NCBI GenBank assembly: GCA_018970395.1
Contig: JAGWWM010000007.1
Location: 14,839 to 78,838 of the forward strand
Direction: 5' to 3'
Length of the DNA: 64,000 bases
DNA from: Bacteroidota bacterium
GTDB taxonomy: Bacteria; Bacteroidota; Bacteroidia; Chitinophagales; Chitinophagaceae
Part shown: piece by piece, positions 17,300-33,547 of the stretch
How the letters are laid out: each line of letters starts with the position of its first letter
Numbering within the stretch: the first letter of the stretch is position 1
Notes under the pieces: model-generated
Told to the model about the DNA's origin: nothing
Databases searched by the model: none
The model's input: the letters and a program-made list of their open reading frames with translations, nothing else
Position numbers and translations under genes: made by a program

Positions 17300-18078
17300 T
17301 ATTGCCTGGTAATTAGAGTGATGGTGGTAATTATCAAAGAAGTAACAGAAATGATAATTGATGCCGTTTTGCCAACTAAAGTGGATTCATATCGGGCTGT
17401 CGGATTGGGCTCAACATAAACAACATCATTCTGTGTAAGATAATATACCGAAGAATTAAAAATATCCTTACTTGTTAAATCAATCCTATATTCTTTTTTG
17501 ATACCATTTACATCTCTAACTACTAAAATATTCTTTCGTACACCGGTAGGCTTGAGATCTCCAGCCAAACCGATTGCTTCCAAAATTGTAATTCTTTCGT
17601 TGGGAATTTTGAAGGTTCCTGGATTTTTTACCTCTCCTAAAACAGTAATCTTATAATTTTGAATTTGAATTTGAACAACGGGATTCTTCAAGTAATCGTT
17701 TAATCTTTTTTCTATCAATGCAACCGCCTGCATACGGGATAATCCGGCAACTTTTATCAAACCCAGAATTGGCAATTTAATTTCTCCCTTCTCATCTACC
17801 AGATACCCAAAAGCAGCAGGATTACCAATCAGATAGCCGTTATTAAAAGTTGAATTACCGGACAGGGGCAAATTGAATGGAGCAGCAGATTCCACATCAT
17901 CACAAGTAACCGTCACAGATAAAAAATCATCGGTTTTAATGAAAGGAGTGTAATTTTTATTGAGTGAGGATGAGTCAGCACTACCAGCTGTTTGAAAATA
18001 AACTAGATTTTCACGAGTTTTACAGGAAAAAAAAAGAAAAAAAGATAGGAAAACGAGTGTAAACTTATAAGAATTCAT
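17299..18078 (-). CDS. wza: Wza-type polysaccharide export lipoprotein
   Basis: Lipobox FFFSC, GEIKLPILG, ITVLGEV, LEAIGLAGDL, DVVYVEPN. Confidence 0.95.
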   Translation of the reverse strand: MNSYKFTLVFLSFFLFFSCKTRENLVYFQTAGSADSSSLNKNYTPFIKTDDFLSVTVTCDDVESAAPFNLPLSGNSTFNNGYLIGNPAAFGYLVDEKGEIKLPILGLIKVAGLSRMQAVALIEKRLNDYLKNPVVQIQIQNYKITVLGEVKNPGTFKIPNERITILEAIGLAGDLKPTGVRKNILVVRDVNGIKKEYRIDLTSKDIFNSSVYYLTQNDVVYVEPNPTARYESTLVGKTASIIISVTSLIITTITLITRQ

Positions 18079-19606: not shown

Positions 19607-20380
19607 TTATGAGGAGGAATGCACACTTCGAATTCTGGATCGAAGGAAATTTAATAAAAGCAGACAAATAAATAAAGAATTGGTTATAAAATAGCGCCTG
19701 AATAACCGTTTGGGTTCCTGAAACAATCTGAATAACCATTCGAGGCTCATTTCTTGCATCCATTGGGGGGCCCTTTTTTGCATTCCAATCACAACAGGAA
19801 GTGCGCCACCAACTCCTATCATGCAAGCATTTATTTTTCCTTTCATCTTAGCCATCCATTTTTCTTGCTTCGGACATCCCAATACCACAAAAACTAATTG
19901 CGCGCCAGACTGATTAATTGTGTTGATTATCTCAATTTCTTCATCATTAGTTAAAGAACGAAATGGAGGACTGTAATAATAATGATTTGTAATTCCGGGA
20001 TATTGAGATGAGATGTGATTTTTTGTTAAGGAAAGCATTTCAACGGTACCTCCAAAAACAAACACAGATAAGTCTAAAGAAGCTGCCTTTTTTAATAAAT
20101 CAGGCAATAAATCAAAACCGGTTGCTCTTTCATGTTTAAGGCCAAATAAAAATTTAATAGACTTAACAAGAGCCATTCCATCAGCAGCAACAACATCAGC
20201 ATTATTCACCTTAGACGCAAAATCGGCATCTAAATAGGCTTCTATAGTCATATGCACATTAGCCAGACACACATAAGACGATTGTCGATTTTTGGAAAAA
20301 TCTATGATTTTATTTAAAATATTTTGATAAGACAGATTATTAATATTTAAAGATATTAATTGGAATTTATCTGATTTCAT
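19607..20380 (-). CDS. WecB/TagA/CpsF (GT26) glycosyltransferase
   Basis: ADGM, LGCPKQEKW, GVGG, RAPQWMQ..SLEWLFRLFQEPKRL.RRY. Confidence 0.92.
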   Translation of the reverse strand: MKSDKFQLISLNINNLSYQNILNKIIDFSKNRQSSYVCLANVHMTIEAYLDADFASKVNNADVVAADGMALVKSIKFLFGLKHERATGFDLLPDLLKKAASLDLSVFVFGGTVEMLSLTKNHISSQYPGITNHYYYSPPFRSLTNDEEIEIINTINQSGAQLVFVVLGCPKQEKWMAKMKGKINACMIGVGGALPVVIGMQKRAPQWMQEMSLEWLFRLFQEPKRLFRRYFITNSLFICLLLLNFLRSRIRSVHSSS

Positions 20381-20424
20381 AACGAATGCAAAGGATAATT
20401 TAGAAAGCAAGCGTAAATTGTATA

Positions 20425-21228
20425 TTAAAGATTAATGGCACTGAAATCCATTTTTTTAAATACATTACATTTTCCGTTCACAGTAACATCAACAATTGAT
20501 TTATTATTACTTTCAAAAGCTTCTCGAGCAAGTTTGTAAGCTAATTCTGACCGCAGTAAATCAGGCAGCTGCCATAAAATTCCTTTAGGAAAATAATCAG
20601 GATGAAAATGGCTTTCATCTTTTTCCTGAGTTCGGTATTCAATTTTATTCGGTTCTCCTTTTTCTTTAAAATTATGATCTAATCCAAGAATATATACTTC
20701 ATCAAAACCCATGAAAAAAATGAGTTGTAGCGCTGCGAAAGTTACTGTCCCTCCACCATATAACCCGCTTAACGGATTAGTGGAGAATTTATCATTGATG
20801 CTGAATCTGTATCTGACAAAGTTTATATCCGTGTTATTGGAGAATAATTTACGTTCGCTCCAGTTGTAAAACTTAACAGAATTAATCTGATTAAAATCAT
20901 CTTTGAACTGCCTAAGGACAAATTCATTCGAAATAATATGATAGGTAGGTTCAAAATTCAATTCATCTTTAAGTAAATAAATTCTATTTAAGCCAAATGT
21001 AATTTCGTTTTTTAGGAGATGCAAATTCATTGATTTTAAACTCGGTCCATTGGCAATTAAAAAACAACGTTTGCCTTTATGAAGATCCTGATAATAGGAT
21101 AATTTTTTTTGACTCAGAATGCCTTCTTCTGAGAAGTACCAGGTATAGATAGAAGGCAAGTTCTTGATTCTATTCAGTAAAGCAGTATAAATTCTTTGAA
21201 AGGAGAGTTCATTAATATTAAATCTCAT
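20425..21228 (-). CDS. DUF115/MptE-like (Maf/Cst-like) putative ulosonate transferase, copy 1
   Basis: CFLIANGPSL, GLNRI, TVTFAALQLIFFMGF.EVYILGLDH, SHFHPDYF. Confidence 0.75.
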   Translation of the reverse strand: MRFNINELSFQRIYTALLNRIKNLPSIYTWYFSEEGILSQKKLSYYQDLHKGKRCFLIANGPSLKSMNLHLLKNEITFGLNRIYLLKDELNFEPTYHIISNEFVLRQFKDDFNQINSVKFYNWSERKLFSNNTDINFVRYRFSINDKFSTNPLSGLYGGGTVTFAALQLIFFMGFDEVYILGLDHNFKEKGEPNKIEYRTQEKDESHFHPDYFPKGILWQLPDLLRSELAYKLAREAFESNNKSIVDVTVNGKCNVFKKMDFSAINL

Positions 21229-21236: not shown

Positions 21237-22526
21237 TTAAAAATCGGATTTAGTTGTATTGATTTGAAATAATCTGTATTTAGCGTAAAAAATTGACAAA
21301 ATTACAACAGACAAAAAAACAAAGAGCGCGTTTTGAAAATACATTCCAAAAAAGGACTCTGTAATTCCAATAAAAATAAAATATAAAATAAACCCTAAAA
21401 GGGCATTTGCAAACTTATCATCATCATTCCAGAGCTTTTGAATTAGTTGTACAATTTCTCGAATCATTAGCATAAAGAATAATAGGCCAATATAACCATA
21501 ATCAAAAAATACAATTAAGGTAGAATTGTGAGGAGTAATCAATTCGCTATTTTTCCACCTTCCAAATAAGTAAGACCAAAACTTAGAAACTCCCGAAATA
21601 TAATGACCATATTCGCCATAGCCAATTAAATGAATAGGTTTAAAATTGGAAATCTCAATTAAGGAAAATAACCAAACAGTCAGGCGCCCATTTACAGAAG
21701 TAATTTCCTCAGTATCTCTTGTCATAAAATTGAAAATATTGTAATTTTCCAATAATTTGAGCACAAACAAGAAGAGAAGAGGTAAAATAATAGGCATTAA
21801 TGGGATGGCGTAAAGAAACTTTTTAAAATTAAAGTGTCTGATTATCCAAACCAAGGCAAAAACAAATACCGGAAATAATAATGATGCTCTTGAATCAAGC
21901 AAAAAAAGGATAGCTATTAAACAAATAATTATTGAAAAAACAAGAATTCTATTTTTAGATGAATAAAAGACATATGTAATTGATAGAAAAAAAACCATCC
22001 CAACTACACTAGCAAAGCTGTTAATGCCTGAAACTAGAGGGAATTGAACACGGTCAATATTAATGCCAATGTTTGCTAACATAAGCGCCTTCCCTATTGA
22101 TAAATCTTGTTGAATATCAAGATTTATCCCGGATGCCCAAAATGCCAAGTTTAAAAAAGCATAAACTCCAAAGGGGAGTATGATGTAAAAAAACAAGAGT
22201 TCAAAAAATAAGACCTTTTTATTTTTAAATATCCATGCATAATGAAGAATAAGCGATAAAAAGAAAAGCATGAATTCAATTCCAGAATACATTGTATAAC
22301 CAAATGACAATTGAGGCTTATTTGTTCGAAAAATACCAATCAGTACAATAAAAGACATTGTAAAGAGGAAAGGAGAAATAAATATTTTTTTAAACTTTAA
22401 TTTATGTAAAAGATAAAAATTGAAACTTCCTAATAAGATAATTGAAAGCGATTGAAATATAAAATTATCTGAAATTAAACGAAAAGATAAAAGGACGATA
22501 ATAAAAATTAATGAATAAATTTTCAA
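21237..22526 (-). CDS. Wzy polymerase / O-antigen-ligase-family membrane protein
   Basis: Many TM helices, DSRAS, NGR..VW, PHN...DYGYIG motifs; TTG start. Confidence 0.8.
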   Translation of the reverse strand: MKIYSLIFIIVLLSFRLISDNFIFQSLSIILLGSFNFYLLHKLKFKKIFISPFLFTMSFIVLIGIFRTNKPQLSFGYTMYSGIEFMLFFLSLILHYAWIFKNKKVLFFELLFFYIILPFGVYAFLNLAFWASGINLDIQQDLSIGKALMLANIGINIDRVQFPLVSGINSFASVVGMVFFLSITYVFYSSKNRILVFSIIICLIAILFLLDSRASLLFPVFVFALVWIIRHFNFKKFLYAIPLMPIILPLLFLFVLKLLENYNIFNFMTRDTEEITSVNGRLTVWLFSLIEISNFKPIHLIGYGEYGHYISGVSKFWSYLFGRWKNSELITPHNSTLIVFFDYGYIGLLFFMLMIREIVQLIQKLWNDDDKFANALLGFILYFIFIGITESFFGMYFQNALFVFLSVVILSIFYAKYRLFQINTTKSDF

Positions 22527-22550: not shown

Positions 22551-23543
22551 TTATAAGCCATTAATAAGCGACAGAAATGCAAAGTCATCATTGTACTTAT
22601 TCAAAAAAATATCTGATTTAGAAAAAGAATGAACCGCCGAATCAAGCTCAGACAAGTCAAAAACAGAAATTAAATTAGGGTAGTCGAAAAATTGTAAATG
22701 TAAAAAACTGTTTTCCCTTACAATAATTGGTTTTCTTAACTGAATAGCACGACCAAAAAAACCCGATGGCCTGTTATTCGTATAAAATGAGTAAATAAAA
22801 TCACAATTATTCATAAGATAAAACAACTCTTCATTCGACACATATCTATTAATGACAAAACAATTTGGAAGATTGCTTATATGAAAAAAATCAGACGATG
22901 ACATTTCACCGGCAAAAAGAAAATTTAAATTATTATAATTTCCCGTGTTTAGAAAATTTAATAACTCAGTTCGTGAGCGTTGTTCATTAAATCTTCCTGG
23001 AACTAAGATTAACTTGCCTGCCTGATTAAAAAAGGTCTCAGATAATTCAGGGGGCATATCTGATTGAATATTTAAATAGGGCAAATCCCATAGTTGAGGG
23101 TCAAACATGAAGGCATTTACAAATTTTTCAATATCTTTTTGGTAGGGCGTATTTTTATGAATTGAGACAATAGTAGTAGTTGAAAAGTTTTTTATGAAAA
23201 AAAATAAAGACTTTTTTATAAATGATTTAAAGAATTTAATAGTACTGCTTTTAAAAAAGCATTTTTTTATTGATTTATGTTCATAAAAATATTCAGTTCT
23301 AACACTAATGGCTATTCCTTTCCCTCCCCAAATACCTCTTAATAAAATTATTGGAAAGAAAATTAAATCTGCATAGTCAATATCAAGGAAAATAATTTTA
23401 TCTCTTGAAAAAAGAATTTTCAATTTAGGAAAAGATGACTTTACATTATTTAAACCAATAAATTTAGAAAATAATAAAAAATAGTCGTCATGATGACAGG
23501 TTCTATTGGCAGAAAAACAAACAATTTTTTTTCCTTTAGGCAT
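22551..23543 (-). CDS. Divergent GT-B (GT4-like) glycosyltransferase
   Basis: C-terminal INRYVSNEELFYLMNNCDFI...SG...RAIQLRKPIIV resembles the GT4 donor-binding region. Confidence 0.55.
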   Translation of the reverse strand: MPKGKKIVCFSANRTCHHDDYFLLFSKFIGLNNVKSSFPKLKILFSRDKIIFLDIDYADLIFFPIILLRGIWGGKGIAISVRTEYFYEHKSIKKCFFKSSTIKFFKSFIKKSLFFFIKNFSTTTIVSIHKNTPYQKDIEKFVNAFMFDPQLWDLPYLNIQSDMPPELSETFFNQAGKLILVPGRFNEQRSRTELLNFLNTGNYNNLNFLFAGEMSSSDFFHISNLPNCFVINRYVSNEELFYLMNNCDFIYSFYTNNRPSGFFGRAIQLRKPIIVRENSFLHLQFFDYPNLISVFDLSELDSAVHSFSKSDIFLNKYNDDFAFLSLINGL

Positions 23544-24339
23544 TGATAAAGTCTTTAAGTTCCATTCTAGGATAAACTTCTAATTTGCCACCTTTAGTAC
23601 AATTAAAAATGTTTCTATTGTGTGCTTCGTAAAATTCAAGAGCCAATTTATAGTGGATTTCAGAACCAAGCAAATCTGGAATTTGCCAGTTCATTCCATT
23701 ACTGAAATATTCAGAAGAAAAATGGTTAGGATCAGATTTGCCTGATTTAACTGTCATATTTGAGGATCCTTCTGTAATGAAGCTATGATCACATCCAACA
23801 AGAGCAACACTTTTAAAGCCAAGATGAAAAGCAACCTGTAAAGCAACATACGTTACTGTATAACCTTGACAAACTGAGCCTGAAATATCACCGGCAAATC
23901 TTAGTTGAAATGGCAAAGAATGAATATAATTAATGTTTTTACCTGAATGTATAAATTTGGAAGCCGAACTATCCAGTATAAGTGGAATATCAGTACTATT
24001 AAAAAAATCCTTGTTTTGTTCAATAACCAGCTTATTGACTGATAGAATCAAATTGGGACGAAAATCAGTTTTATTAAATAAAAGATTAATTTTATTTAAT
24101 CCGATTGTAAAAATTCCGGATTTTTTTAACTCATTAAAATCAACTTCATTTAAACTAGGGCCATTACATAAAATAACAGCTTTTTGACCTACATGCTGAT
24201 TTTGTAACTTTTTAAGTCCTATTTTGCTACGACGCGCCTTAAAAGAAAGATCCCATAAAACCCTATTTTTTAAGAATCCTAATGCAATCCGATAGAGATT
24301 TAATCTTAAAGAAGGATTTATTTGTTTGATATAATTCAT
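23536..24339 (-). CDS. DUF115/MptE-like (Maf/Cst-like) putative ulosonate transferase, copy 2
   Basis: AVILCNGPSL, GLNKI, TVTYVALQVAFHLGF..VALVGCDH, NHFSSEYF. Confidence 0.75.
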   Translation of the reverse strand: MNYIKQINPSLRLNLYRIALGFLKNRVLWDLSFKARRSKIGLKKLQNQHVGQKAVILCNGPSLNEVDFNELKKSGIFTIGLNKINLLFNKTDFRPNLILSVNKLVIEQNKDFFNSTDIPLILDSSASKFIHSGKNINYIHSLPFQLRFAGDISGSVCQGYTVTYVALQVAFHLGFKSVALVGCDHSFITEGSSNMTVKSGKSDPNHFSSEYFSNGMNWQIPDLLGSEIHYKLALEFYEAHNRNIFNCTKGGKLEVYPRMELKDFINA

Positions 24340-24370
24340 ACTAAAAATTACAGAAAGATTTGATCAAATT

Positions 24371-25816
24371 TTAAAGAAGAAAAAGTTTAATGAAAATAAA
24401 ACCAATTAAAAGACATAGAGGCAATAGGGAAACAGATGTTTCAAATTTAAAAAAACTAGTCTGAATGCTTTTTAAAGAATTGATGGCAGAATACCATGAG
24501 TAAAAACCAAGATATCCGCAAAGCATCGCTACCGGAATTGCATAAATGCCTAGTGTATGGACAGCAATAAAAGCTACAACAATAAAAATAATTCCGGAAA
24601 CTCCGTCTGCAATATGGGCAATGATATGGTTAGTTGTTAAATACAACTGCATATGCATTGCGCCAAATCTGTGTACAAAAAAAGCTAAAGAAAATAGAAA
24701 CCAAAAAAGAGAAGGAACGAAATCAATATTACTTTGTATAAGACTGATAAGATACTCGCTAAAAAAACCTACAATAAGTACGCCTGAAACGAAAATAAGA
24801 TGACTTAACCGCATACCCTTTTGAGATAATTTAATTAATTTGTCAATTCTGCCCTCAGCTCTTAACCTTGATAAGTATGGAATTTTACTGTAAAAAGGAG
24901 CCATAGCAATTTCTTTAAGTTGAGTCATAATTCTTAACGCAAGAAGATATGAAGATATAATAATGGGATCTCCAATCTGTGCATATAAAATACCACTCAG
25001 ATGAGTAAGGCCATTAGACATTAGTCCTGAAATGCCGGTTTTCCAGGCAGGCGGCCAAAGCTTATTAAACAAACTTAGATTAAATGGTAAAGATTTAAAT
25101 GACTGAAGCTTGCCATCTTCTATATTCCTGGATAAAAACCAGTTTCTAAGCACATTCAGAATCAACCAGATCTGATTTGCTATAATCAAAGAAAGCAAAC
25201 TGCCATTCATTAAAAGAACAATAATGCTTGTCGTAATACTTCCTAAATTCATTAAAGATTCAATTTTTCTTACTAAAGCAATTTTATTTAATCCTTCGAG
25301 ATAGTTTTGAAAAATTGTTCCGTAAAAACGAATCACATTGGCAATAATTATCACTCCCCAAGCCAACCAGGCATTCTTTTGATGTTCAACCAAAGAAATG
25401 GGCTTAATAAGAAGACAGGTTCCGATACTAATTAAAAGAAATAATAAAATAAGACTTAGATACTTGTAAATCAAAGTCATAATTGAAAAGATCTCTTCCA
25501 GCAAATTCCAATTAGTTACGCTATCAGATTCATTATTTTTTTGGCCTGTATGATAAATTTTAATTTCGGTTGCCCCGGCAACAGCGTATGAAATTACTCG
25601 GATAAATGTCTGCCTAAACCCCATATCTGCAAGTCCCAACAAGATAAATATAGAGCTGAAGAGATACCATAAACTAATTTCAGGAGGAGCAAATTTTTTC
25701 AGTATTAGAGGTAAAACAACAAATAAACTAAGTGCTTTGGTTGAATAACTTAACCATGTCATTAAAGTTGGCGAATGCCAAAAACGCGTATAAGATGACT
25801 TGATCAAATTAACCAT
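24371..25816 (-). CDS. wzx: Wzx flippase (MOP superfamily)
   Basis: About 12 TM helices, LGLADMGF, position inside a Wzy-type locus. Confidence 0.75.
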   Translation of the reverse strand: MVNLIKSSYTRFWHSPTLMTWLSYSTKALSLFVVLPLILKKFAPPEISLWYLFSSIFILLGLADMGFRQTFIRVISYAVAGATEIKIYHTGQKNNESDSVTNWNLLEEIFSIMTLIYKYLSLILLFLLISIGTCLLIKPISLVEHQKNAWLAWGVIIIANVIRFYGTIFQNYLEGLNKIALVRKIESLMNLGSITTSIIVLLMNGSLLSLIIANQIWLILNVLRNWFLSRNIEDGKLQSFKSLPFNLSLFNKLWPPAWKTGISGLMSNGLTHLSGILYAQIGDPIIISSYLLALRIMTQLKEIAMAPFYSKIPYLSRLRAEGRIDKLIKLSQKGMRLSHLIFVSGVLIVGFFSEYLISLIQSNIDFVPSLFWFLFSLAFFVHRFGAMHMQLYLTTNHIIAHIADGVSGIIFIVVAFIAVHTLGIYAIPVAMLCGYLGFYSWYSAINSLKSIQTSFFKFETSVSLLPLCLLIGFIFIKLFLL

Positions 25817-26744
25817 TAATTAATGATAAAAGATTTTGAACAGCCATTATCCCTTGTCTTTCTACGCTTTGATGTGTTCGAGAACCTACATGGGGGGTAA
25901 TAATTACGTTTTCAAGCCCTAAAAGTTTTTCATTTTTTTCAATCGGCTCTATTGCAAGAACATCTGTAAGATAACCACGAATCTTTCCGTTTTGCAATCC
26001 AATTATAAGAGCATCCGTATTCACTAGCATTCCCCTTGCCGTATTTACAATGACGGGGGTCTTTTTAAGCAGATTATTTATAACATGATCATTTATAATA
26101 TACTCAGTTTCTGGAGTATGTGGCAGATGAAGACTTATATAATCGGCATCATAAAAGAGTTGGCTGAGTGAATCGGCAAAATGAACATCTGGATTATTTT
26201 TTAAAAAATCAGTATCTCTATACAGATCAAAAGCAATCACCTTGAGACCGAGTGCAATCGATTTTTTAGACAAAGCCTTTCCTATAGCACCTAATCCAAC
26301 AATCCCAATAGTTTTTCCTTCTATTTCATTACCCGTATATCTTTTCCAACTTCCACTTTGGACTGCAGTGTATTGAACGATTATATTTTTTTCAAAAGTC
26401 AGGATGAGTGCAAGTACATGTTCAGCAACCGATATTTGATTAACTCCGGGACAATTTTTAACAGGAATACCTAATTCATTTGCTATTTTTAAATTGATTC
26501 GATCTAGGCCAACGCCATATTTTGAAATAAATTTCAATTTGCCGGAACGTCCTTTTCTTAATACATTTTCAGTGTATTCATCATCTCCGCATACAACTGC
26601 ATCGTATTCCTGTATTATAGGCAACAAAACTGATTCAGGTACCGGGCCTCGTAAATAATCAATATCAAATCCTTGGGCATTTAACAAATCATGATGTTTG
26701 CCGGGTGTATCTTGAAATGAGGTAGAAGTAAGTAAAATTTTCAT
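25809..26744 (-). CDS. D-isomer 2-hydroxyacid dehydrogenase (PGDH-like, no ACT domain)
   Basis: YGVGLDRI, GIVGLGAIG, NTARG, DV...EP, TPHVGS. Confidence 0.9.
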   Translation of the reverse strand: MKILLTSTSFQDTPGKHHDLLNAQGFDIDYLRGPVPESVLLPIIQEYDAVVCGDDEYTENVLRKGRSGKLKFISKYGVGLDRINLKIANELGIPVKNCPGVNQISVAEHVLALILTFEKNIIVQYTAVQSGSWKRYTGNEIEGKTIGIVGLGAIGKALSKKSIALGLKVIAFDLYRDTDFLKNNPDVHFADSLSQLFYDADYISLHLPHTPETEYIINDHVINNLLKKTPVIVNTARGMLVNTDALIIGLQNGKIRGYLTDVLAIEPIEKNEKLLGLENVIITPHVGSRTHQSVERQGIMAVQNLLSLING

Positions 26745-26752
26745 TGATATTA

Positions 26753-27817
26753 TTATTTAATTTTAGATGGGTAGCTGGAAACCGATTGAATCAGCTTATT
26801 TAATGGCATAAAATATCTAGTCGGATGATTAGGAATAAAAATATCCCAAGGAAGTAAAGTTTCCCTTTGGTGTTTGATATTATATTCAATTAGTTTAACA
26901 TGCAGACTTGCATCCTTTGAAGGAATAGTAAACAGTTGAGATTTATGTAAAGAATCTGCTGTGGAATAAAGCTTATGAAGGATGGAGTCGTTTACTTTTT
27001 TAGCTTCAAGTTCTGCTATCCCGCCATCGAATTTTTGATAAATTTTATTCCATTCTCCATTATAATTGTTCGTTAGAAAAATCATTCTCGGGTAATTTTC
27101 TCTGACACAACTCATCCATTGTTCAAAAAAAAGTATAACTGACTCTTCTTGGAAATGCTCATAATGTTTAAGAATTATTGAATCATTTGCTGAAAGAATA
27201 TTTTTCTTGTTTGCTTTCTTCTCAATAATTCTGATTATTGAATCAATATCAACAGTTCTATCCGGATAGAGTTGATCATATTTTGCAATGCAATGTTTGC
27301 AAAAGCAACCAACAATTCCCTCTTTCTTCAACCTTACATTAAATAAAGGATCATCTACAAATAATGCATACGGCTTTTTGGTAGATAAAAAATTACTTCG
27401 TTCAAAAAAAAGATCTGCGAATAACGGATTATTAACACATCCCCAAAAGAGGTTCTTATTTTTCCATGATTTCATCCAGGGGGCTACGTATTCAATTCCT
27501 TTGTAATCAATTATTCTGTATTTGGAAGTTGTATAACCTGCCGAATCCGGAATCTGAGGATTAAGCGTTAAGCTGTACTTAAGGTTTCTTCTTTTATACT
27601 CCTGAAGAACGAGATCATTTTCATAATATACCCAATCAATTCGATTTGGCTTTAATTGATCAATGATGAGTAAAGTACTGGTTGAGTCATTTTTATCGCG
27701 CGGATGAAAAAAACGTGAGGAAAGCACATAATTATTTGATATATGAGCATTATTCTTACATGAAGCAAAGAAAAATATTATTATCAGGAATCTCAATTTG
27801 AATCTATAATTTTTCAA
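26753..27817 (-). CDS. Hypothetical lipoprotein, glycoside-hydrolase-like TIM barrel
   Basis: Lipobox FFASC; W.CVNNP.F, LFVDDP and GCFCKHC motifs recall GH42/GHL-type barrels. Confidence 0.5.
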   Translation of the reverse strand: MKNYRFKLRFLIIIFFFASCKNNAHISNNYVLSSRFFHPRDKNDSTSTLLIIDQLKPNRIDWVYYENDLVLQEYKRRNLKYSLTLNPQIPDSAGYTTSKYRIIDYKGIEYVAPWMKSWKNKNLFWGCVNNPLFADLFFERSNFLSTKKPYALFVDDPLFNVRLKKEGIVGCFCKHCIAKYDQLYPDRTVDIDSIIRIIEKKANKKNILSANDSIILKHYEHFQEESVILFFEQWMSCVRENYPRMIFLTNNYNGEWNKIYQKFDGGIAELEAKKVNDSILHKLYSTADSLHKSQLFTIPSKDASLHVKLIEYNIKHQRETLLPWDIFIPNHPTRYFMPLNKLIQSVSSYPSKIK

Positions 27818-28457
27818 TTAAATCAATTGTATCACTTAGATGAGTTAAATCTTTAATTCTGATTACATTCTGATTTTTAAATAATTCAAATCCTTCTTCT
27901 GTTTCTCTTAAAATAAAATGTAAATTATGAACAACCGCTGCGTTATAATCGGTTAAGGCGTCTCCGACGAACACGCATTCATTAGGACTTAATGAGTGCA
28001 TATTTAAAATTTCATTAACCCAAAATTCTTTTTTTTCAGGAGAGCCATAAATACCATCAAAAAAATGACTCATATTCCTTCGCTCGAGGATAGGGATAAT
28101 TTCCACAGTAGGCGTGCCGGTAATTATAAATTTTTTATACGCAGGATTGTTTTTCAGAAATGCGTAAGCGCCCGGAACTTCGGGAGCATGAATAACGCCA
28201 TCCACAACCAAATTGCTAAACTCATCTGATAGAATTTTAATTTTTTCATCACTCAATTCCTGATTTAACCAAGATCCATTATAAATCCTAAATTTTTCAA
28301 ATCTTGAAATACCTCCATTAGCCTGATGATGCGCTACAACCTTCTCAGCAAATTCATGCCCGTATGGAAGATACATTTTCCTGAAAGCTTCTGTTTTTAC
28401 ATTGACAGATTCAGCCAGCACTCCGTCAAAATCAAAAAAAATACATTTTATTTTCAT
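27804..28457 (-). CDS. HAD-family phosphatase (class IA)
   Basis: FFDFDGVL, IITGT, GSP.KK, FVGDALTD. MKIK start chosen over 28475. Confidence 0.88.
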   Translation of the reverse strand: MKIKCIFFDFDGVLAESVNVKTEAFRKMYLPYGHEFAEKVVAHHQANGGISRFEKFRIYNGSWLNQELSDEKIKILSDEFSNLVVDGVIHAPEVPGAYAFLKNNPAYKKFIITGTPTVEIIPILERRNMSHFFDGIYGSPEKKEFWVNEILNMHSLSPNECVFVGDALTDYNAAVVHNLHFILRETEEGFELFKNQNVIRIKDLTHLSDTIDLIEKL

Positions 28458-28467
28458 TAAACATAAT

Positions 28468-29169
28468 TTATCCAACCAAACAATGAAGATTTTGATGTGT
28501 TTTTATAATTGGGGTTACAGGATAAGAATTATCTATCCCGGATAATATATCTGATAAAATACTTTCTTTTTTTGCTCCTTTCAAAAGCAAAATGATTTCT
28601 TTTGAATTGAGAATAAGCGGATAGGTCATCGTAATTCTATCAGCATTCAATTGAGGAACAGAATTGATGACAACAGATTCGTGTTCAATATCTAGTGCAA
28701 CCGTTGATGGAAAAAGGGATGCAGTATGGCCATCATCTCCCATGCCAAGTAAAATCAGATCAAATTGAGAGAAACCATTTTCGCCAGTTTCAACATGTTT
28801 TAAAATTTGAGTCCGATACAGCTTAACAGTTTCTTCAAGGCTCAGATGCTCCTGGATCATTGAAAAAGCAGCAGATTCAATAAAGTCAAAAAAAACATTT
28901 GAGATATTGCCAAAATTACTCTCTCGGCTTGAAATAGGAACGCAACGTTCATCTACTAAAAAAAAATTATATCTTTTCCAATTAATCGGATACTTTTTGA
29001 GTAAGGAAAGAATCGGAAGAGGAGTACTTCCCCCTGACAAGCCTATATTGATGTTTTCGGATTTATTTCGCTCTAATTCACAAAAACGGTTAAAAATGAA
29101 TGCTGCAGCAAAACTGCTAAAATCCTGATCAAATAGAGGCTTACAAATTTTCGGTACGGCCATACTCAT
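28468..29169 (-). CDS. pgl: 6-phosphogluconolactonase-like protein
   Basis: GLSGGSTP, VDERCVP, SNF, LLGMGDDGHTASLFP, RITMT. Confidence 0.85.
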   Translation of the reverse strand: MSMAVPKICKPLFDQDFSSFAAAFIFNRFCELERNKSENINIGLSGGSTPLPILSLLKKYPINWKRYNFFLVDERCVPISSRESNFGNISNVFFDFIESAAFSMIQEHLSLEETVKLYRTQILKHVETGENGFSQFDLILLGMGDDGHTASLFPSTVALDIEHESVVINSVPQLNADRITMTYPLILNSKEIILLLKGAKKESILSDILSGIDNSYPVTPIIKTHQNLHCLVG

Positions 29170-30040
29170 TATAATAAACAGCTCTTACGCATTCAAGCAA
29201 ACCTTGACCCATATCAATATGCGGATTAGCAATTAATTTTTTACTTACAGATGCGTCAAATGCGTAGGGAGTAAATCTGTAATGATTATTATACCCTTCG
29301 TTTTTACAAATTACTTCTACTTTATTATCCAGAATTTCATTAATCATGTTAAATAATTCAATTCTCTTTAACCGTTCATTACCAGTGAGAATAACATGAA
29401 TATTATTAAATTCTTCTGACTCTAAAACATCTACCGAAAGTTTAGCTGCATCTGAAGCATGGATATACTCACGAATTTCTTCCCCATCTCCCTTATGTTC
29501 AATTTTTCCGCTGACCACCGCATCTTTTACTAATTTATAAATGTAATTATTGTTATAATCTTTTTCTGCATATACAGAACCATATCTTAAAATGACAAAA
29601 GAAAGTCCAAGTTTTCTGGAATACTCTTCAATAATCTTTTCAGAAGCCAGTTTACTGATACCATAAAAGGAGCCTTTATTGCTGACTGCATAAGCACTGC
29701 TGGCGTAGATAAATTTTTTAACTCCATGTGAGAGACAGGCATCAAGAATATATATATTGCTGATTACATTAAGCTCCATTGTTTTAAGTGGATTCTGTAC
29801 CGCATCATCTAAATTTGCGAAACCGGCCAGATTGTACACAATATCAAATTCATATTGATTAAAAATACGAATTACGTTTTCTTTGCTTGATATGTCGCAT
29901 TGTATAAATGTGACCTCATGCTTTAGAGATTCGTTTGTGCTCAAATCCGCAACAAATACAATATAATTTCTTGAGATTAGCTCTTGAACGAGATAAGATC
30001 CCAAAAAACCGAAGCCTCCAAAAACTAAAACTCGGTTCAT
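29141..30040 (-). CDS. NAD-dependent epimerase/dehydratase (extended SDR)
   Basis: GGFGFLG, NLAG, ASS, YGISK (YxxxK), LRYGSVY. Confidence 0.9.
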   Translation of the reverse strand: MNRVLVFGGFGFLGSYLVQELISRNYIVFVADLSTNESLKHEVTFIQCDISSKENVIRIFNQYEFDIVYNLAGFANLDDAVQNPLKTMELNVISNIYILDACLSHGVKKFIYASSAYAVSNKGSFYGISKLASEKIIEEYSRKLGLSFVILRYGSVYAEKDYNNNYIYKLVKDAVVSGKIEHKGDGEEIREYIHASDAAKLSVDVLESEEFNNIHVILTGNERLKRIELFNMINEILDNKVEVICKNEGYNNHYRFTPYAFDASVSKKLIANPHIDMGQGLLECVRAVYYNEYGRTENL

Positions 30041-30825
30041 TTTATTTTTTGATTTAATAATCTCATTTCATCTCTGGCCTTGTCGCCAAGGAAAAAGAAA
30101 TCAAGACTAAAAGCTAGAAAAGAATATCCTTTATTAATTTTTTCAACGATTTTCTCGTGATTGGAATCAATCACATGGAATCCAAGGGACTTATTCAATC
30201 TTTTAGAAATTTCCTCCACTTTATCTAGCGCCAACTTAACATCTTCTCGGTGATATTCACCCGGATAACCCATCGAAGCAGAAAGATCGTAAGGCCCAAC
30301 AATAATCCCGTCTATATCAGGAACAGAAAAAATATCTTCCAGATTTTGAACTGCTTCAATATGTTCAATCTGGGCAATCAAAACAGCTTCATTTTTGACC
30401 CAATCCTGATACGAATTAAACGCAGTACCATATTTCTGAGCTCTATTTAATCCAACACCTCTTTTACCTATTGGCGGATATTTGACATAGTTGACTGCCT
30501 CAATCGCTTCAGCTTTATTTTTAATCATAGGCACAATTACACCATCTGCTCCTGCATCCAAGACTCTCTTAATAACTACTTCTTCATTCTTGCTTACACG
30601 CACAAGAGCCTGCATTCCATTACCCTGAATATGACCAATTAAATTCATAACAGTCTCGATACTGATAGCTGCGTGTTCGATATCTATTGCAAGCCATTCA
30701 AAGCCGGCTGTGGAAAGAATTTCAATAACCGATTGATGAGGAATCGTCAACCAAGAACCGAATGATAATTCTTTTTTCGCAAGTTTTTGTTTTAACCTGC
30801 TGTTATGATGTGAAAAGTTTTGCAT
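30037..30825 (-). CDS. HpcH/HpaI class II pyruvate aldolase
   Basis: DIEH, LVRV, LDAGADGVIVPM, YPPIGKRG, QIE, GPYDLSASMG; the catalytic His, Arg, Glu and Asp positions are all present. Confidence 0.93.
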   Translation of the reverse strand: MQNFSHHNSRLKQKLAKKELSFGSWLTIPHQSVIEILSTAGFEWLAIDIEHAAISIETVMNLIGHIQGNGMQALVRVSKNEEVVIKRVLDAGADGVIVPMIKNKAEAIEAVNYVKYPPIGKRGVGLNRAQKYGTAFNSYQDWVKNEAVLIAQIEHIEAVQNLEDIFSVPDIDGIIVGPYDLSASMGYPGEYHREDVKLALDKVEEISKRLNKSLGFHVIDSNHEKIVEKINKGYSFLAFSLDFFFLGDKARDEMRLLNQKIK

Positions 30826-31267
30826 TTACTTTTATTACTATTTTTTTAAGTGAACTAATATGATTATTGATGGCAAACTGGGGATGATGAATATCCTGCT
30901 GAAAAAAAACAGCCATATACCCGGGAGTTAAATCAATTATTGAGTAGGGCTCCCCTGTTTCACGATAAAACTGACAATCCGTTTCTTCTTTATATGATTG
31001 AGTTATGTCAACATGCTGAAAGTCGTATAATTTTATTCTTTCTACGCCTGATAATAATACCTGAATATCCACCTCCCTCCTATGAGATTCGATAATGGTT
31101 GGCGCCATTTGAGTTGAATAGCTCATTACCTTAAAATAATAATCGGCGTTATTTTGATAAACGCCGTCAGGTGTATGGATATTTATCGATGACAACTCAT
31201 TAAAAATTTCCTGGAAAAGATCATTTTTAAAATAGATTTCCCAATTGTTTATTTTATCGCAAATCAT
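30803..31267 (-). CDS. YhcH/YjgK/YiaL (NanQ-like) protein
   Basis: ESHRREVDIQ, DCQFY, VFF..DIHHP, KKIVIKV. Confidence 0.9.
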   Translation of the reverse strand: MICDKINNWEIYFKNDLFQEIFNELSSINIHTPDGVYQNNADYYFKVMSYSTQMAPTIIESHRREVDIQVLLSGVERIKLYDFQHVDITQSYKEETDCQFYRETGEPYSIIDLTPGYMAVFFQQDIHHPQFAINNHISSLKKIVIKVNAKLFTS

Positions 31268-31938
31268 GATAATAATTTATAAATCGCTTCAGCAATTATA
31301 AAATCCTGCGGCTCGTCAATATCTACCGCTTCAATTTTATCTATTTCAAACATGTAAGGATTTAAACCAATTCTTTTGCCACCTGCATTTTCAAAAGATG
31401 CTTTACTGAAAATGTAGAAATTTGAATTTTCCTCATAAAGAGGCTCTAAGTCCTGAGTACGAAGTAATTCATTCGGATTATGATTAAAGGGAGTTCCGTC
31501 TTTTTTGTATAAACGAGTTTGAATTTTAGTAACTGAAAAAACTGAGTCATAAAGTCCACTTTCTTTATACTCGATCATTTTTTCAATTGCAGCATCAATT
31601 GAAGATGTTTTAAGCAAAGGATTTGTGCTATGTGTCTGCAAATATAAGTCAGCCTCTACCTTGGAGATATCACATTCTATAACCTTATTCATAGAAACAA
31701 AATCACCAACAATTTCAGCTGGCCTATCAATAATAATTACCTTGTCGCTAAATTGCTCTTTAATATCATTTTTAATTGCCTGACTATCTGTATTTACAAT
31801 GACTGATGAAATATATTTTGAATAGAGTAAAGTTTCCAATACTCTATGGTAAAGGGGTCTCCCTGAAAATGATTTAAGGTTTTTATTAGGAACTCTTTCA
31901 GAATTTCCTTTCATAGGGAGAAGTGCTGCAATTTTCAT
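31264..31938 (-). CDS. Acylneuraminate/ulosonate cytidylyltransferase (single domain)
   Basis: PMKGNSERVPNKN, VNTDS, HSTNPL, RTQDL, DIDEPQDF. Confidence 0.92.
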   Translation of the reverse strand: MKIAALLPMKGNSERVPNKNLKSFSGRPLYHRVLETLLYSKYISSVIVNTDSQAIKNDIKEQFSDKVIIIDRPAEIVGDFVSMNKVIECDISKVEADLYLQTHSTNPLLKTSSIDAAIEKMIEYKESGLYDSVFSVTKIQTRLYKKDGTPFNHNPNELLRTQDLEPLYEENSNFYIFSKASFENAGGKRIGLNPYMFEIDKIEAVDIDEPQDFIIAEAIYKLLS

Positions 31939-31958
31939 TTTGAATAATTTATTTAAAA

Positions 31959-31990
31959 ATGCTTCGCTTTCCTGAGTCCCAAAAAACTAC
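31959..31990 (-). promoter_or_regulatory. Putative ops-like pause/antitermination element in the polysaccharide-locus leader
   Basis: Minus strand reads GTAGTTTTTTGGGACTCAGGAAAGCGAAGCAT, 20 nt upstream of the first ATG. Resemblance to Bacteroidota capsule-leader elements is recalled, not verified. Confidence 0.45.
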
Positions 31991-32084
31991 AGGCAATTCC
32001 AAGAACTAAACAAATAGAAAATAGTTTCCAAAGGATTGATAGCCTGTGGCTTAAAATCTAATTGATTGGTAAAATGGTATATTA

Positions 32085-32092
32085 CAAAGTTA
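32085..32092 (-). promoter_or_regulatory. -7 promoter of the polysaccharide locus
   Basis: TAACTTTG about 146 nt upstream of the cytidylyltransferase ATG. Confidence 0.65.
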
Positions 32093-32153
32093 AAATATAA
32101 AATTATAATATCCAATCAAAGCCTTGCTTTAACTTATGTAAATTTTTATGATT

Positions 32154-32189
32154 AAAAAAGAAAAAGGTTGGCAAATGATTGCCAACCTT
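32154..32189 (-). terminator. Intrinsic terminator of ompA
   Basis: AAGGTTGGCAA-TCAT-TTGCCAACCTT, an 11-bp stem followed by a T-rich tail on the minus strand. Confidence 0.9.
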
Positions 32190-33459: not shown

Positions 33460-33547
33460 AAAATGTTTTTTAAAGAATTTTGGCAATATTACACTTTTTT
33501 TTGAAATATTTATCGAATGTTTTTTCTTTTTTTTCCACAAATAGAAA

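Follow-up and report, generated by a model that had tools for sequence, protein, structure and literature searches.

The cassette described here appears, judged from its gene families, to encode a route to a CMP-activated keto-acid sugar that does without the usual PEP-dependent synthase. It lies in a 64,000-nt sequence, called the window below, from a Bacteroidota bacterium of the Chitinophagaceae (GCA_018970395.1, contig JAGWWM010000007.1, positions 14,839–78,838 of the forward strand). All eight open reading frames that the initial annotation had assigned to it were found at their coordinates on the minus strand (31938–25809). They form the head of a Wzx/Wzy/Wza/Wzc operon of 17 genes, which lies on a low-GC island and is predicted to be a capsule-type polysaccharide operon. 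The features are listed in the direction of transcription, the cassette being the first eight genes.

31939..32163, minus strand, operon leader and probable promoter region, between the hairpin that follows the upstream ompA-like gene and the first cassette gene
31264..31938, minus strand, CMP-sugar synthetase (cytidylyltransferase), CTP_transf_3, 224 aa (Pfam E 1.7e-28)
30803..31267, minus strand, YhcH/DUF386 protein, 154 aa (Pfam E 1.6e-29)
30037..30825, minus strand, HpcH/HpaI aldolase, class II (metal-dependent), 262 aa (Pfam HpcH_HpaI E 4.7e-34)
29141..30040, minus strand, short extended SDR, 299 aa (Pfam Epimerase E 1.3e-41)
28468..29169, minus strand, 6-phosphogluconolactonase-family hydrolase (Pgl), 233 aa (Glucosamine_iso; TIGR01198 160.1 against a cutoff of 124.45)
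27804..28475, minus strand, HAD-IA phosphatase, 223 aa (Pfam HAD_2 E 4.6e-14)
26753..27817, minus strand, 354-aa protein with a lipoprotein-like signal, no family match, N-terminus MKNYRFKLRFLIIIFFFASC
25809..26744, minus strand, D-isomer 2-hydroxyacid dehydrogenase, NAD-type, 311 aa (Pfam 2-Hacid_dh_C E 4.2e-48)
24371..25816, minus strand, Wzx-like flippase (NCBIfam NF041503 WZX_like E 1.7e-52, under cutoff)
23536..24339, minus strand, MptE-like/DUF115 putative ulosonate transferase 1 (PF01973 E 2.3e-13)
22551..23543, minus strand, 330-aa protein, no family match, conserved along with this serotype-type locus
21237..22526, minus strand, Wzy-type polymerase (Pfam Wzy_C E 4.5e-10)
20425..21228, minus strand, MptE-like/DUF115 putative ulosonate transferase 2 (PF01973 E 9.6e-11)
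19607..20410, minus strand, WecG/TagA-family glycosyltransferase (Pfam E 2.8e-53)
18126..19526, minus strand, initiating polyprenyl-phosphate sugar-phosphate transferase, Bac_transf + CoA_binding_3 (Pfam E 2e-63)
17299..18078, minus strand, Wza-type outer-membrane polysaccharide export protein (Pfam Poly_export + SLBB)
14882..17299, minus strand, Wzc-type co-polymerase/tyrosine kinase ending in a (GY)n tail, final operon gene (Pfam Wzz, GNVR, AAA_31)

The tight packing claimed for the eight genes was confirmed by their coordinates. The first six junctions are overlaps of 4, 23, 4, 29, 8 and 14 bp, the lipoprotein-like gene and the 2-hydroxyacid dehydrogenase gene are separated by an 8-bp gap, and the latter overlaps wzx by 8 bp; these sizes assume the longest-ORF starts, and some true starts may be internal to these frames. 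Directly after the OmpA-family gene at 32215–33540 comes a terminator-like hairpin (32189–32164, minus strand; stem of 11 bp), and the promoter probably lies within the leader; a sigma-70 scan is uninformative for Bacteroidota. At the other end of the operon, a hairpin with a T-run (14854–14830) lies just downstream of the Wzc-type gene.

Family assignment of the open reading frames between 12008 and 38953 revealed no NeuB, KdsA, NeuC, aminotransferase or acetyltransferase, as the initial annotation had stated for the locus, and tblastn of the whole window with E. coli KdsA and a NeuB gave no match at E<=1e-3. Among 88 related loci, aldolase-less and weak-match loci included, KdsA was missing from all and NeuB from 84. 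The gene families and the lack of a PEP-dependent synthase support the earlier proposal that this polysaccharide locus contains a CMP-ulosonate-type cassette for a nitrogen-free sugar. No published characterisation of the cassette or the route was found in the searchable literature.

When the neighbourhood was searched for in other genomes, as had been suggested, a core of five genes (cytidylyltransferase, aldolase, SDR, HAD and 2-hydroxyacid dehydrogenase) emerged. With the aldolase as anchor it was syntenic in 19 of 22 genome loci, and with the 2-hydroxyacid dehydrogenase as anchor in 21 of 22 metagenome loci. The arrangement is therefore not due to chance. The core extends over Bacteroidota, Campylobacterota, Vibrio and Denitrovibrio, while YhcH (present in 10/22 and 13/22 complete loci of the two sets, respectively) and the lipoprotein-like gene are optional members. 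The latter is an accessory gene outside the conserved core: its homologs occur only in loci L004 and L007, it has no Pfam, NCBIfam or PDB match even at lenient thresholds, and its single-sequence AF2 model (pLDDT 33) is unusable. The same two loci contain 52–53% identical homologs of the 330-aa protein.

At the activation end, the cytidylyltransferase is nearer to PseF/NeuA than to KdsB (PseF model 93.6 bits, cutoff 205.7; KdsB models <=43 bits), and its top PDB match is the murine CMP-Neu5Ac synthetase (E 7.9e-14). YhcH scores 79 with TIGR00022 (cutoff 45.5) and 78.6 with the NanQ anomerase model (cutoff 160), and is a putative ulosonate anomerase or ring-form helper. Its position between the aldolase and the cytidylyltransferase in about half of the loci fits the helper role suggested for it earlier. 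The aldolase matches HpaI, YfaU and GarL in the PDB (E about 1e-36) and scores under the cutoff with each equivalog model (HpaI 175, GarL 161, RhmA 139 bits); its residues D48, H51, R76, E153 and D179 line up with D42, H45, R70, E149 and D175 of HpaI. Of all the cassette genes it is conserved best (median 75% identity to related loci), and it always adjoins the cytidylyltransferase, even where the class of the latter differs. The partner is a KdsB-class transferase in the proteobacterial clade (Sulfurimonas; 320 bits, above cutoff), a hint that the product is 3-deoxy and Kdo-like, and in the Vibrio loci it is a CTP_transf_3 gene of matching length and position.

The extended SDR carries GxxGxxG, an Asp after beta-2 and YxxxK. 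No NCBIfam equivalog model scored above cutoff for it; its top PDB match is a GalE-like protein of T. maritima (E 6.7e-29), and the NCBIfam and PDB comparisons did not link it specifically to any known sugar-phosphate dehydrogenase. We propose that it may be an aldose-phosphate 1-dehydrogenase. It always adjoins the lactonase slot and the HAD gene, the trio being contiguous in both gene architectures. In the window this slot holds a predicted canonical Pgl with intact catalytic motifs and phosphate site: LSGGSTP, DER and GMGDDGHTASLFP, like the conserved Arg and Lys, match those of solved 6PGLs in the alignment. Elsewhere it is filled by a PF04199 'cyclase' hydrolase (L019, L023, L025, L030) or is empty (L001, L048, L053, L087 and others). 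Locus L029 also has a PF04199 hydrolase, but elsewhere in the locus. HAD, which has only weak matches to phosphoglycolate phosphatase and beta-PGM-type models, occurs together with the extended SDR, L029 having instead a classical SDR and an AroB-like phosphate-eliminating enzyme without HAD; in L068, HAD is fused to the 2-hydroxyacid dehydrogenase. The dehydrogenase could not be placed in any subfamily, as its scores with the PGDH (210 bits), glyoxylate reductase (187) and GhrB (129) models all fell under their cutoffs; its top PDB matches (E 5e-47) are archaeal 'PGDH' and glycerate dehydrogenase. The Asp after beta-2, read in the sequences of both dehydrogenases, is the usual NAD-preferring signature and fits two oxidations.

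A widespread sibling module lacks the aldolase. Its order is [cyclase]–CMP transferase–2-hydroxyacid dehydrogenase–classical SDR–MptE glycosyltransferase, and aldolase-less versions occur also in Anaerolineae and an archaeal MAG. Its CMP transferase is 50% identical to the cytidylyltransferase of the window, its 2-hydroxyacid dehydrogenase only 31–33% identical to ours, and its SDR scores highest with aldose and glucose 1-dehydrogenase models, under their cutoffs. MptE-like transferase 1 of the window, which has weak matches to WaaZ and PseD, is 37–38% identical to the transferase of this module, and transferase 2 is 42–43% identical (E about 1e-70). Since a homologous CMP transferase and glycosyltransferase occur here with a 2-hydroxyacid dehydrogenase and an SDR but without an aldolase, it is suggested that oxidation can install the 2-keto-acid function.

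With rather less than even confidence, we favour a pathway in which oxidation of an aldose-6-phosphate would yield a 2-keto-aldonate, whose C3–C4 the aldolase would then remodel before CMP activation. The product would be a CMP-activated 2-ulosonic (alpha-keto) acid sugar free of nitrogen, made by a self-contained route independent of a PEP synthase. We infer the following order of steps. The NAD-type SDR would oxidise C1 of the aldose-6-phosphate, probably a hexose-6-phosphate, to a 6-phospho-lactone, which would be opened by Pgl; other lineages would use the PF04199 hydrolase or nothing, an empty slot being tolerable because such lactones also open spontaneously. The NAD-type D-2-hydroxyacid dehydrogenase would then oxidise the C2-OH of the 6-phospho-aldonate to 2-keto-6-phospho-aldonate, the reverse of the reaction of KguD and GhrB, 2-ketoaldonate reductases of the same family, and the HAD phosphatase would pull this step forward. 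The aldolase would act last, on the C3–C4 bond of the 4-hydroxy-2-keto acid, by retro-aldol/aldol chemistry through the hydroxypyruvate enolate, so that C4 (or C3) would be epimerised or the aldehyde-derived tail swapped, giving the final stereochemistry or tail. Ring closure or anomerisation, sped by YhcH, and formation of the CMP-sugar by the cytidylyltransferase would follow; in other lineages methyl- and acetyltransferases may decorate the sugar. The two MptE-like/DUF115 transferases would place it in a Wzx/Wzy-dependent surface polysaccharide.

The aldolase is placed after the dehydrogenase that forms the 2-keto acid because it and the SDR would otherwise compete for one aldehyde; this is also the single serial order obtained when all enzymes are kept to canonical chemistry. 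The intact Pgl, the slot shared by Pgl and PF04199, the HAD–dehydrogenase fusion in L068 and the aldolase-less module argue for the oxidative route. Stereocontrol at C4 is poor in HpaI, hydroxypyruvate can serve as donor for HpcH-family enzymes, and AraD is an epimerase with an aldolase fold. Against it, we know of no precedent for an HpcH enzyme as epimerase or remodeller, and to oxidise a 2-hydroxy acid with NAD is to run thermodynamically uphill. The KdsB-class partner, the GalE-like SDR and the unplaced dehydrogenase also speak against it, and the evidence from the aldolase-less module is limited by the divergence of its dehydrogenase and by the module being uncharacterised. The conservation of the aldolase and its constant contact with the cytidylyltransferase are what is expected of a true synthase.

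A strong rival, though on balance unlikely, is that the aldolase joins pyruvate to an aldose(-phosphate) to give a 3-deoxy-2-ulosonate(-phosphate) of Kdo-, Kdn-, DAH- or KDG-like type. HAD would then dephosphorylate, YhcH set the ring form and the cytidylyltransferase activate, with the SDR, lactonase and 2-hydroxyacid dehydrogenase in side roles (C4 deracemisation, distal oxidation, precursor supply). The coupling of the aldolase to CMP transferases of whatever class, the Sulfurimonas and Vibrio partners included, supports this reading, as do its conservation and intact catalytic residues, and aldolase, HAD and CMP transferase parallel KdsA, KdsC and KdsB. In L029 the aldolase is paired with a DHQ-synthase-like enzyme, a type that naturally acts on a 3-deoxy-ulosonate phosphate. 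Further, 3-deoxy-pent- and hex-ulosonic acids occur in polymers of Klebsiella K38, Vibrio parahaemolyticus O7/O12 and Azotobacter; their biosynthesis is, as far as we are aware, not known. However, three universally co-conserved enzymes would be left without a defined job, there would be no place for a canonical phospho-lactonase, and pyruvate aldolases thermodynamically favour cleavage. The sibling module, moreover, would supply homologous CMP transferases and glycosyltransferases with a donor without any aldolase, so that the pyruvate-joining synthase proposed by the initial annotation is possible but not established. Nor is there support for its accompanying view of lactonase, dehydrogenase, SDR and HAD as suppliers of the aldehyde partner, since Pgl, an NAD-type SDR and a 2-hydroxyacid dehydrogenase consume aldehydes, turning an aldose phosphate into a 2-keto acid. 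No support was obtained for a C6 KDG-type or C7 Dha-type product.

It is improbable that the PGDH-like dehydrogenase and HAD convert 3-phosphoglycerate to hydroxypyruvate, to which the aldolase would add an aldose(-phosphate) to form a Ko-type 3-hydroxy ulosonic acid, SDR and Pgl serving a separate supply step. The PGDH-type top NCBIfam and PDB matches of the dehydrogenase, the fusion in L068, the use of hydroxypyruvate by the HpcH family and the homology of the aldolase to the hydroxyketoacid aldolase of PDB 6r62 are consistent with this scheme. Yet the dehydrogenase reads VCGDDEYT at what we take to be the position of RSxT, the phosphate-binding motif of PGDH, the SDR and Pgl are left unexplained, and hydroxypyruvate supply cannot be the general role of a dehydrogenase that the sibling module has without an aldolase. 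Very improbable is that the cassette takes an ulosonic acid from elsewhere (e.g., housekeeping Kdo via KdsA, which Gram-negative genomes normally carry outside such loci) and tailors or activates it, or combines two unrelated co-travelling functions: separate NeuB clusters do lie near some related loci, but most have no NeuB within 8–10 kb, the five core genes, with their overlapping frames, are inherited together across phyla, and aldolase-less versions occur in Anaerolineae and an archaeal lineage that are not expected to make Kdo.

The cassette lies on the minus strand of the window and consists of the following eight genes.

31264-31938, minus: CTP_transf_3 cytidylyltransferase, 224 aa (Pfam E 1.7e-28)
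30803-31267, minus: YhcH/DUF386 protein, 154 aa (Pfam E 1.6e-29)
30037-30825, minus: HpcH/HpaI aldolase, 262 aa (Pfam E 4.7e-34)
29141-30040, minus: short extended SDR, 299 aa (Pfam Epimerase E 1.3e-41)
28468-29169, minus: Pgl-family protein, 233 aa (TIGR01198, 160.1 against a cutoff of 124.45)
27804-28475, minus: HAD-IA hydrolase, 223 aa (Pfam HAD_2 E 4.6e-14)
26753-27817, minus: protein with a lipoprotein-like N-terminus, 354 aa (without family match)
25809-26744, minus: D-2-hydroxyacid dehydrogenase (2HADH), 311 aa (Pfam E 4.2e-48)

The ORF coordinates bear out the tight packing described in the initial annotation, each junction being either an overlap of 4-29 bp or an 8-bp gap. Its headline, an uncharacterised CMP-acid-sugar cassette without a PEP-dependent synthase, was also right: a core of five genes (cytidylyltransferase, aldolase, extended SDR, HAD, and 2HADH) is conserved, and no paper characterising the cassette was found in a full-text literature search. 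The cassette is a variant of CMP-acid-sugar biosynthesis that is uncharacterised in the literature searched. The Leptospira rfb/sru locus is listed with an HpcH aldolase, a 6PGL, and a KdsB-like gene, to which no function is assigned. A preprint on CMP-sugars (SugarBase) held nothing matching the cassette. Hexulosonic acid side branches do exist in capsules, since E. coli K3 carries one.

The predicted proteins were compared with family and equivalog models. The cytidylyltransferase matched PF02348 over residues 4-182 (E 1.7e-28) and missed the equivalog cutoffs for PseF (93.6 vs 205.7 bits) and kdsB (23.5 vs 155.2). The aldolase has the PF03328 match, the metal ligands, and the catalytic Arg and His of a class II HpcH/HpaI enzyme; when it was aligned with HpaI, D48, H51, R76, E153, and D179 corresponded to HpaI D42, H45, R70, E149, and D175. 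It stayed under the cutoffs for HpaI (175.5 vs 368.8), GarL (160.7 vs 393), and RhmA (139.1 vs 441), and no dehydratase partner of the catabolic GarL/HpaI/RhmA type was found in the window locus or in related loci. The YhcH protein passed the cutoff of the broader YhcH/YjgK/YiaL subfamily (79 vs 45.5) and was under that of the N-acetylneuraminate anomerase NanQ (NF040884; 78.6 vs 160).

The Pgl protein qualifies as a putative 6-phosphogluconolactonase by the TIGR01198 cutoff and the GGSTP, DER, and GxGxDGHxASxFP motifs. When aligned with the solved 6PGLs 1y89 and 1vl1, it was seen to keep LSGGSTP, DER, and GMGDDGHTASLFP, along with their conserved Arg and Lys; by homology with the NagB/6PGL family, its sugar-phosphate site is probably intact. 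The 2HADH was under the cutoff for D-3-phosphoglycerate dehydrogenase (TIGR01327; 210.3 vs 454), and the segment that we take to match the RSxT-type phosphate-binding motif of PGDH reads VCGDDEYT. Both dehydrogenases, the SDR and the 2HADH, have an Asp after beta-2, a NAD-type signature. The 354-aa protein had no Pfam or PDB match even at lenient thresholds, and its single-sequence AlphaFold model reached a pLDDT of 33. It may be noted that its lipoprotein-type signal is odd amid genes for cytoplasmic enzymes.

ORFs follow head to tail on the minus strand from 31938 down to 14882, the cassette being the first eight. Downstream lie wzx, an MptE-like/DUF115 gene, a gene for a 330-aa protein, wzy, a second MptE-like gene, WecG/TagA, Bac_transf (the initiating transferase), wza, and wzc, all nine in the orientation of the cassette. 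The ompA-like gene upstream ends in a strong terminator-like hairpin (32189-32164), and a second hairpin with a T-run follows wzc (14854-14830). The ORF succession and the flanking hairpins together indicate a 17-gene, 17-kb operon. With flippase, polymerase, initiating transferase, and a Wza/Wzc pair in one operon, the locus is of the Wzx/Wzy-dependent type; the domains concerned are WZX_like (E 1.7e-52, under its cutoff), Wzy_C, Bac_transf, Poly_export, and Wzz/GNVR/AAA_31. Profile searches showed the MptE-like proteins to be distant relatives of WaaZ and PseD. A sigma-70 promoter scan gave 96 matches where 90 were expected, and its calls were set aside for lack of any excess over background.

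The true end of the operon is ambiguous, as the hairpin at 14854-14830 would fall within a plausible signal peptide (region 14830-14900) of the next gene (14131-15015, Fib_succ_major domain). The longest ORF of that gene overlaps the 3' end of wzc; its N-terminal 'TDTDTD' is the Wzc (GY)n kinase tail in another frame, probably a longest-ORF artefact.

No NeuB, KdsA, NeuC, aminotransferase, or acetyltransferase was found among the ORFs between 12008 and 38953, nor did any of these match a NeuB- or KdsA/DAHP-synthase-family Pfam model. When E. coli KdsA (from L089, one of the numbered loci from other genomes and metagenomes) and a NeuB (from L025, a Sulfurimonas locus) were used as tblastn queries on the 64-kb window, nothing was returned. 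These absences agree with the initial annotation. Among 88 related loci, NeuB occurred in four (L025, L039, L087, and L088), each time within a separate nonulosonic-acid cluster.

At E<=1e-20 the aldolase had 5521 homologs, and identity to it was 77-100% among the best 120. Environmental metagenomes, among them marine (Tara Oceans) and sea-ice ones, supplied such homologs, as did Flavobacteriia (Polaribacter, Tenacibaculum, Flavobacterium), Campylobacterota, and Vibrio. Those that had a public name were usually called '2-dehydro-3-deoxyglucarate aldolase' or 'aldolase/citrate lyase family protein'. Scanning with the aldolase, one genome being taken for each species, gave 30 loci. These included Chitinophagaceae (Ferruginibacter, 92% identity; Ginsengibacter, 83%), many Flavobacteriia (among them Polaribacter glomeratus ATCC 43844, Flavobacterium akiainvivens IK-1, and Tenacibaculum insulae JDTF-31), and, with identities near 60%, Sulfurimonas, Sulfuricurvum, a gammaproteobacterium, and Denitrovibrio. 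The close matches in Chitinophagaceae make this the probable family of the window itself. Some near-identical aldolases bore the names Paraglaciecola and Porticoccaceae (homologs P0034 and P0038); P0034 is encoded on a contig submitted as a Polaribacter MAG, and the contigs bearing P0038 show the same gene layout. Misbinning or mislabelling of public MAGs probably explains both names, which were dropped as a sign of gammaproteobacterial spread; Vibrio is better evidence for that.

By tblastn and ORF clustering, the five core genes were all present in 19 of the 22 loci that had been found through the aldolase and had enough flank, and in 21 of 22 metagenome loci found independently through the 2HADH. 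Median identities to the window were 75% for the aldolase, 66% for the SDR, 64% for the 2HADH, 61% for the cytidylyltransferase, 55% for YhcH (present in about half of the related loci), 49% for HAD, and 48% for Pgl. Homologs of the 354-aa protein were confined, among related loci, to a Flavobacterium MAG (L004) and P. glomeratus (L007), which match the window in wzx, wzy, the two MptE-like genes, and the 330-aa protein as well, and therefore carry essentially its polysaccharide locus. GC content is 29-34% over the operon (17000-32000) and 40-44% in the flanks; together with the near-identical gene content of these two loci, this points to horizontal exchange of the whole serotype locus between bacterial classes. 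The cassette is real, conserved, and horizontally mobile. For neither the 330-aa (22551-23543) nor the 354-aa protein was a family or solved relative detected, and their conservation is limited to loci sharing this exact polysaccharide type.

In Bacteroidota the gene order is cytidylyltransferase, (YhcH), aldolase, SDR, Pgl, HAD, 2HADH. The Pgl position is variable: in L019 and L023 it is occupied by a PF04199 'cyclase' (arylformamidase-like) hydrolase, the Sulfurimonas loci L025 and L030 have the order 2HADH, SDR, cyclase, HAD, and L001, L048, L053, L054, L059, L070, and the Vibrio loci have no hydrolase at all. Such exchange and loss fit a lactonase, since aldonolactones also open spontaneously. 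Another locus, L029, combines a PF04199 hydrolase with a classical SDR and a DHQ-synthase-like enzyme, and lacks the extended SDR and HAD of the cassette. In L068 a single ORF (4251-5852) fuses the HAD phosphatase to 2HADH, implying coupled catalytic steps. The proteobacterial/campylobacterotal aldolase clade is 80-90% conserved from Sulfurimonas to Vibrio. Here, a cytidylyltransferase of a different class directly follows the aldolase (that of L025 passes KdsB-class models; NF009905, 320 bits vs cutoff 255), and 2HADH, a 294-aa extended SDR, and HAD lie nearby, along with variable methyltransferases, acetyltransferases, and radical-SAM enzymes.

Pursuit of a weak match, L071, led to a sibling module without the aldolase, ordered [PF04199 cyclase, NKWYS protein, or nothing]-CTP_transf_3-2HADH-classical SDR-MptE-like transferase. 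Examples are the following.

L071, 6625-9682: sibling module in an O-antigen ABC-transporter locus
L080-L086 (e.g., L081, 7376-11189): sibling modules, among them those of the cyanobacterium Okeania (L080), an archaeal MAG (L082), a flagellar glycosylation island (L083, L084), and Anaerolineae (L085, L086)

The sibling shares with the cassette a 2HADH, an SDR, the lack of a PEP synthase, a related cytidylyltransferase (50% identical to that of the window, in a family of >8000 homologs at E<=1e-30), and an MptE-like transferase (42-43% identical to the product of window gene 20425-21228; E ~1e-70). Unlike the cassette, it has no aldolase, HAD, Pgl, or YhcH, and its SDR is classical instead of extended, with best models of the 'aldose dehydrogenase' and 'glucose 1-dehydrogenase' type, under their cutoffs. 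No characterisation of the module was found in the literature.

It is well supported that the product of the cassette is a CMP ester made by the CTP_transf_3 enzyme, that its route has no nitrogen-installing step, and that it is passed to the MptE-like transferases and exported by the Wzx/Wzy system. To our knowledge, CTP_transf_3 enzymes act solely on 2-keto (ulosonic) acids. How this acid is made is a matter of how the remaining enzymes are ordered. The SDR plus lactonase and the aldolase cannot share one aldehyde, because both need an aldehyde.

The arrangement that we tentatively put first, at somewhat below an even chance, is an oxidative chain with the aldolase at its end; it draws on family membership, gene order, fusions, and co-occurrence. 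The extended SDR would oxidise an aldose-6-P to the 6-P-lactone, which Pgl would open to the 6-P-aldonate. The 2HADH would then give the 2-keto-6-P-aldonate, and HAD would release the free 2-keto-aldonate. For the 2HADH this would mean running the KguD/GhrB reaction backwards. The free 2-keto-aldonate would already be a plausible substrate for the cytidylyltransferase; being a 4-hydroxy-2-keto acid, it would also belong to the substrate class of HpcH. The aldolase would act last, on the C3-C4 bond via a hydroxypyruvate enolate, epimerising the acid or exchanging its aldehyde-derived tail, and YhcH and then the cytidylyltransferase would follow. Such a chain would account for the adjacency of the SDR, lactonase, and HAD genes, the fusion of HAD with 2HADH, the pattern by which the extended SDR goes with HAD and the classical SDR with its absence, the NAD-type signatures of both dehydrogenases, and the aldolase-less module with its homologous activating and transferring enzymes. 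It is for these five features that the aldolase is placed last.

In the scheme of the initial annotation, the aldolase is instead the synthase, joining pyruvate to an aldose(-phosphate) to give a 3-deoxy-ulosonate; HAD, YhcH, and cytidylyltransferase would then mirror KdsC and KdsB. It agrees with the constant adjacency of aldolase and cytidylyltransferase, the extreme conservation and intact catalytic residues of the aldolase, the KdsB-class partner in one clade, and the pairing with a DHQ-synthase-like enzyme in L029. It leaves three universally co-conserved enzymes unexplained. The lactonase, dehydrogenase, SDR, and HAD were to prepare the aldehyde partner, which the chemistry of the first three cannot do: the canonical reactions of SDR, Pgl, and 2HADH give a 2-keto-6-P-aldonate instead. 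The mechanism as written step by step is hence not supported, and we regard a synthase role of the aldolase as the main rival reading, less likely than not. A variant with hydroxypyruvate as donor, and a reading of the cassette as tailoring only, are less likely.

Several other schemes were rejected. Ruff-type decarboxylation of the 2-keto-aldonate to a shorter aldose lacks a thiamine-type decarboxylase; an SDR acting as decarboxylating 6PG 3-dehydrogenase with Pgl as isomerase clashes with the swappable and dispensable Pgl slot; and a lactonase and SDR run in reverse to a lactol would be uphill and a misfit with the NAD-type cofactor sites. Uronate/aldarate and Dha-type schemes lack the required dialdose or primary-alcohol oxidase, glyoxylate as aldol acceptor would give a product unable to form a sugar ring, and a phosphonate or CMP-phosphonate reading lacks a PEP mutase.

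Judged by its predicted enzymes, the cassette appears to work like Kdo and sialic-acid activation at the last steps (phosphatase, anomerase, CMP synthetase, and dedicated transferases). It falls outside those pathways because it lacks the PEP-dependent synthase that defines them and misses the PseF, KdsB, NanQ, GarL, HpaI, RhmA, and PGDH cutoffs; of its proteins, Pgl alone clears a curated cutoff of this kind. With the Kdo pathway (KdsD, KdsA, KdsC, KdsB) it shares a CMP-activated, nitrogen-free 2-keto acid sugar as end product, a dedicated HAD phosphatase, and a CTP_transf_3 enzyme, of KdsB class in the proteobacterial clade. Unlike that pathway, it has no KdsA-type synthase or SIS-type isomerase, its HAD is of type IA and not of the KdsC/YrbI type (KdsC model, 20 bits), and it adds two NAD-type dehydrogenases, a phospho-lactonase, and a class II pyruvate aldolase. 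The nonulosonic pathways (NeuB/NeuA, PseI/PseF, LegI/LegF, and the Bacteroides Kdn-9-P synthase and phosphatase) are alike in their setting, a polysaccharide or flagellin-glycosylation locus; the cassette cytidylyltransferase is PseF/NeuA-like, the MptE-like/DUF115 transferases resemble the Maf/PseD type, and YhcH is a homolog of NanQ, the Neu5Ac anomerase. In contrast to them, the cassette lacks a NeuB-family synthase, NeuC/PseG hydrolase, aminotransferase, and N-acetyltransferase.

The oxidative glucose-6-P branch and 2-ketogluconate metabolism employ Zwf or the SDR-type Azf, Pgl, and the 2-ketoaldonate reductases KguD/GhrB. The intermediates proposed here, from aldose-6-P to 2-keto-6-P-aldonate, are the same, as are the Pgl and D-2-hydroxyacid dehydrogenase families, whereas the cassette chain would run biosynthetically to the 2-keto acid and end in CMP activation. 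Against Azf the extended SDR reached 26.6 bits and aligned in the Rossmann part alone, so the match is not specific. The aldolase shares fold and catalytic residues with the class II pyruvate aldolases HpaI, GarL, and RhmA (YfaU); unlike these catabolic enzymes, it is encoded in a biosynthetic polysaccharide operon beside a CMP transferase.

As far as we know, all characterised CMP-acid-sugar routes (Kdo, sialic, pseudaminic, legionaminic, and Kdn) begin with a PEP-dependent synthase, and genome mining for CMP-activated acid sugars keys on NeuB and KdsA. The cassette and its sibling have neither gene, so they are invisible to such screens, common as they are. Conceivably, though with less than even odds, the two represent a third route beside the PEP condensations of NeuB and KdsA type, in which two NAD-dependent oxidations of an aldose(-phosphate) would be combined with an HpcH aldolase as epimeriser or tail exchanger, the products being non-deoxy 2-keto-aldonic (hex-2-ulosonic-type) residues. 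If so, a class of surface-glycan acid sugars wide across phyla has gone undetected. A new acid sugar would bear on the chemistry of capsules and O-antigens in abundant marine heterotrophs, on phage and grazer recognition and the degradability of marine polysaccharides, and on enzyme toolkits for PEP-free ulosonic acid synthesis. As to annotation, the names '2-dehydro-3-deoxyglucarate aldolase' for the aldolase and 'CMP-N-acetylneuraminic acid synthetase' for the transferase in some public sources are unsupported here, and genes resembling phosphoglycerate dehydrogenase and 6-phosphogluconolactonase models could likewise be mislabelled.

Other CMP-acid-sugar genes were seen beside some of the related cassettes. 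In L055 a second cluster (8978-13567) directly follows the cassette, with a GFO/IDH/MocA oxidoreductase, a GmhA-like SIS isomerase, a classical SDR, an AroB-related 'sugar phosphate phospholyase (cyclizing)' (TIGR04425, above cutoff), YhcH, and a cytidylyltransferase 48% identical to that of the window. Its product might be a carbocyclic or heptose-derived CMP-activated acid. Pieces resembling this cluster occur in L029 and in the Leptospira sru locus. The Vibrio loci L087 (Vibrio sp. YMD68) and L088 (1-15300 in both) hold three CTP_transf_3 genes within one polysaccharide locus: one in a NeuB-type cluster, one after the HpcH aldolase, and one beside an Fe-ADH and an aminotransferase, a neighbourhood that looks like the Kdo8N pathway. 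Both also contain a LIC12162-family protein.
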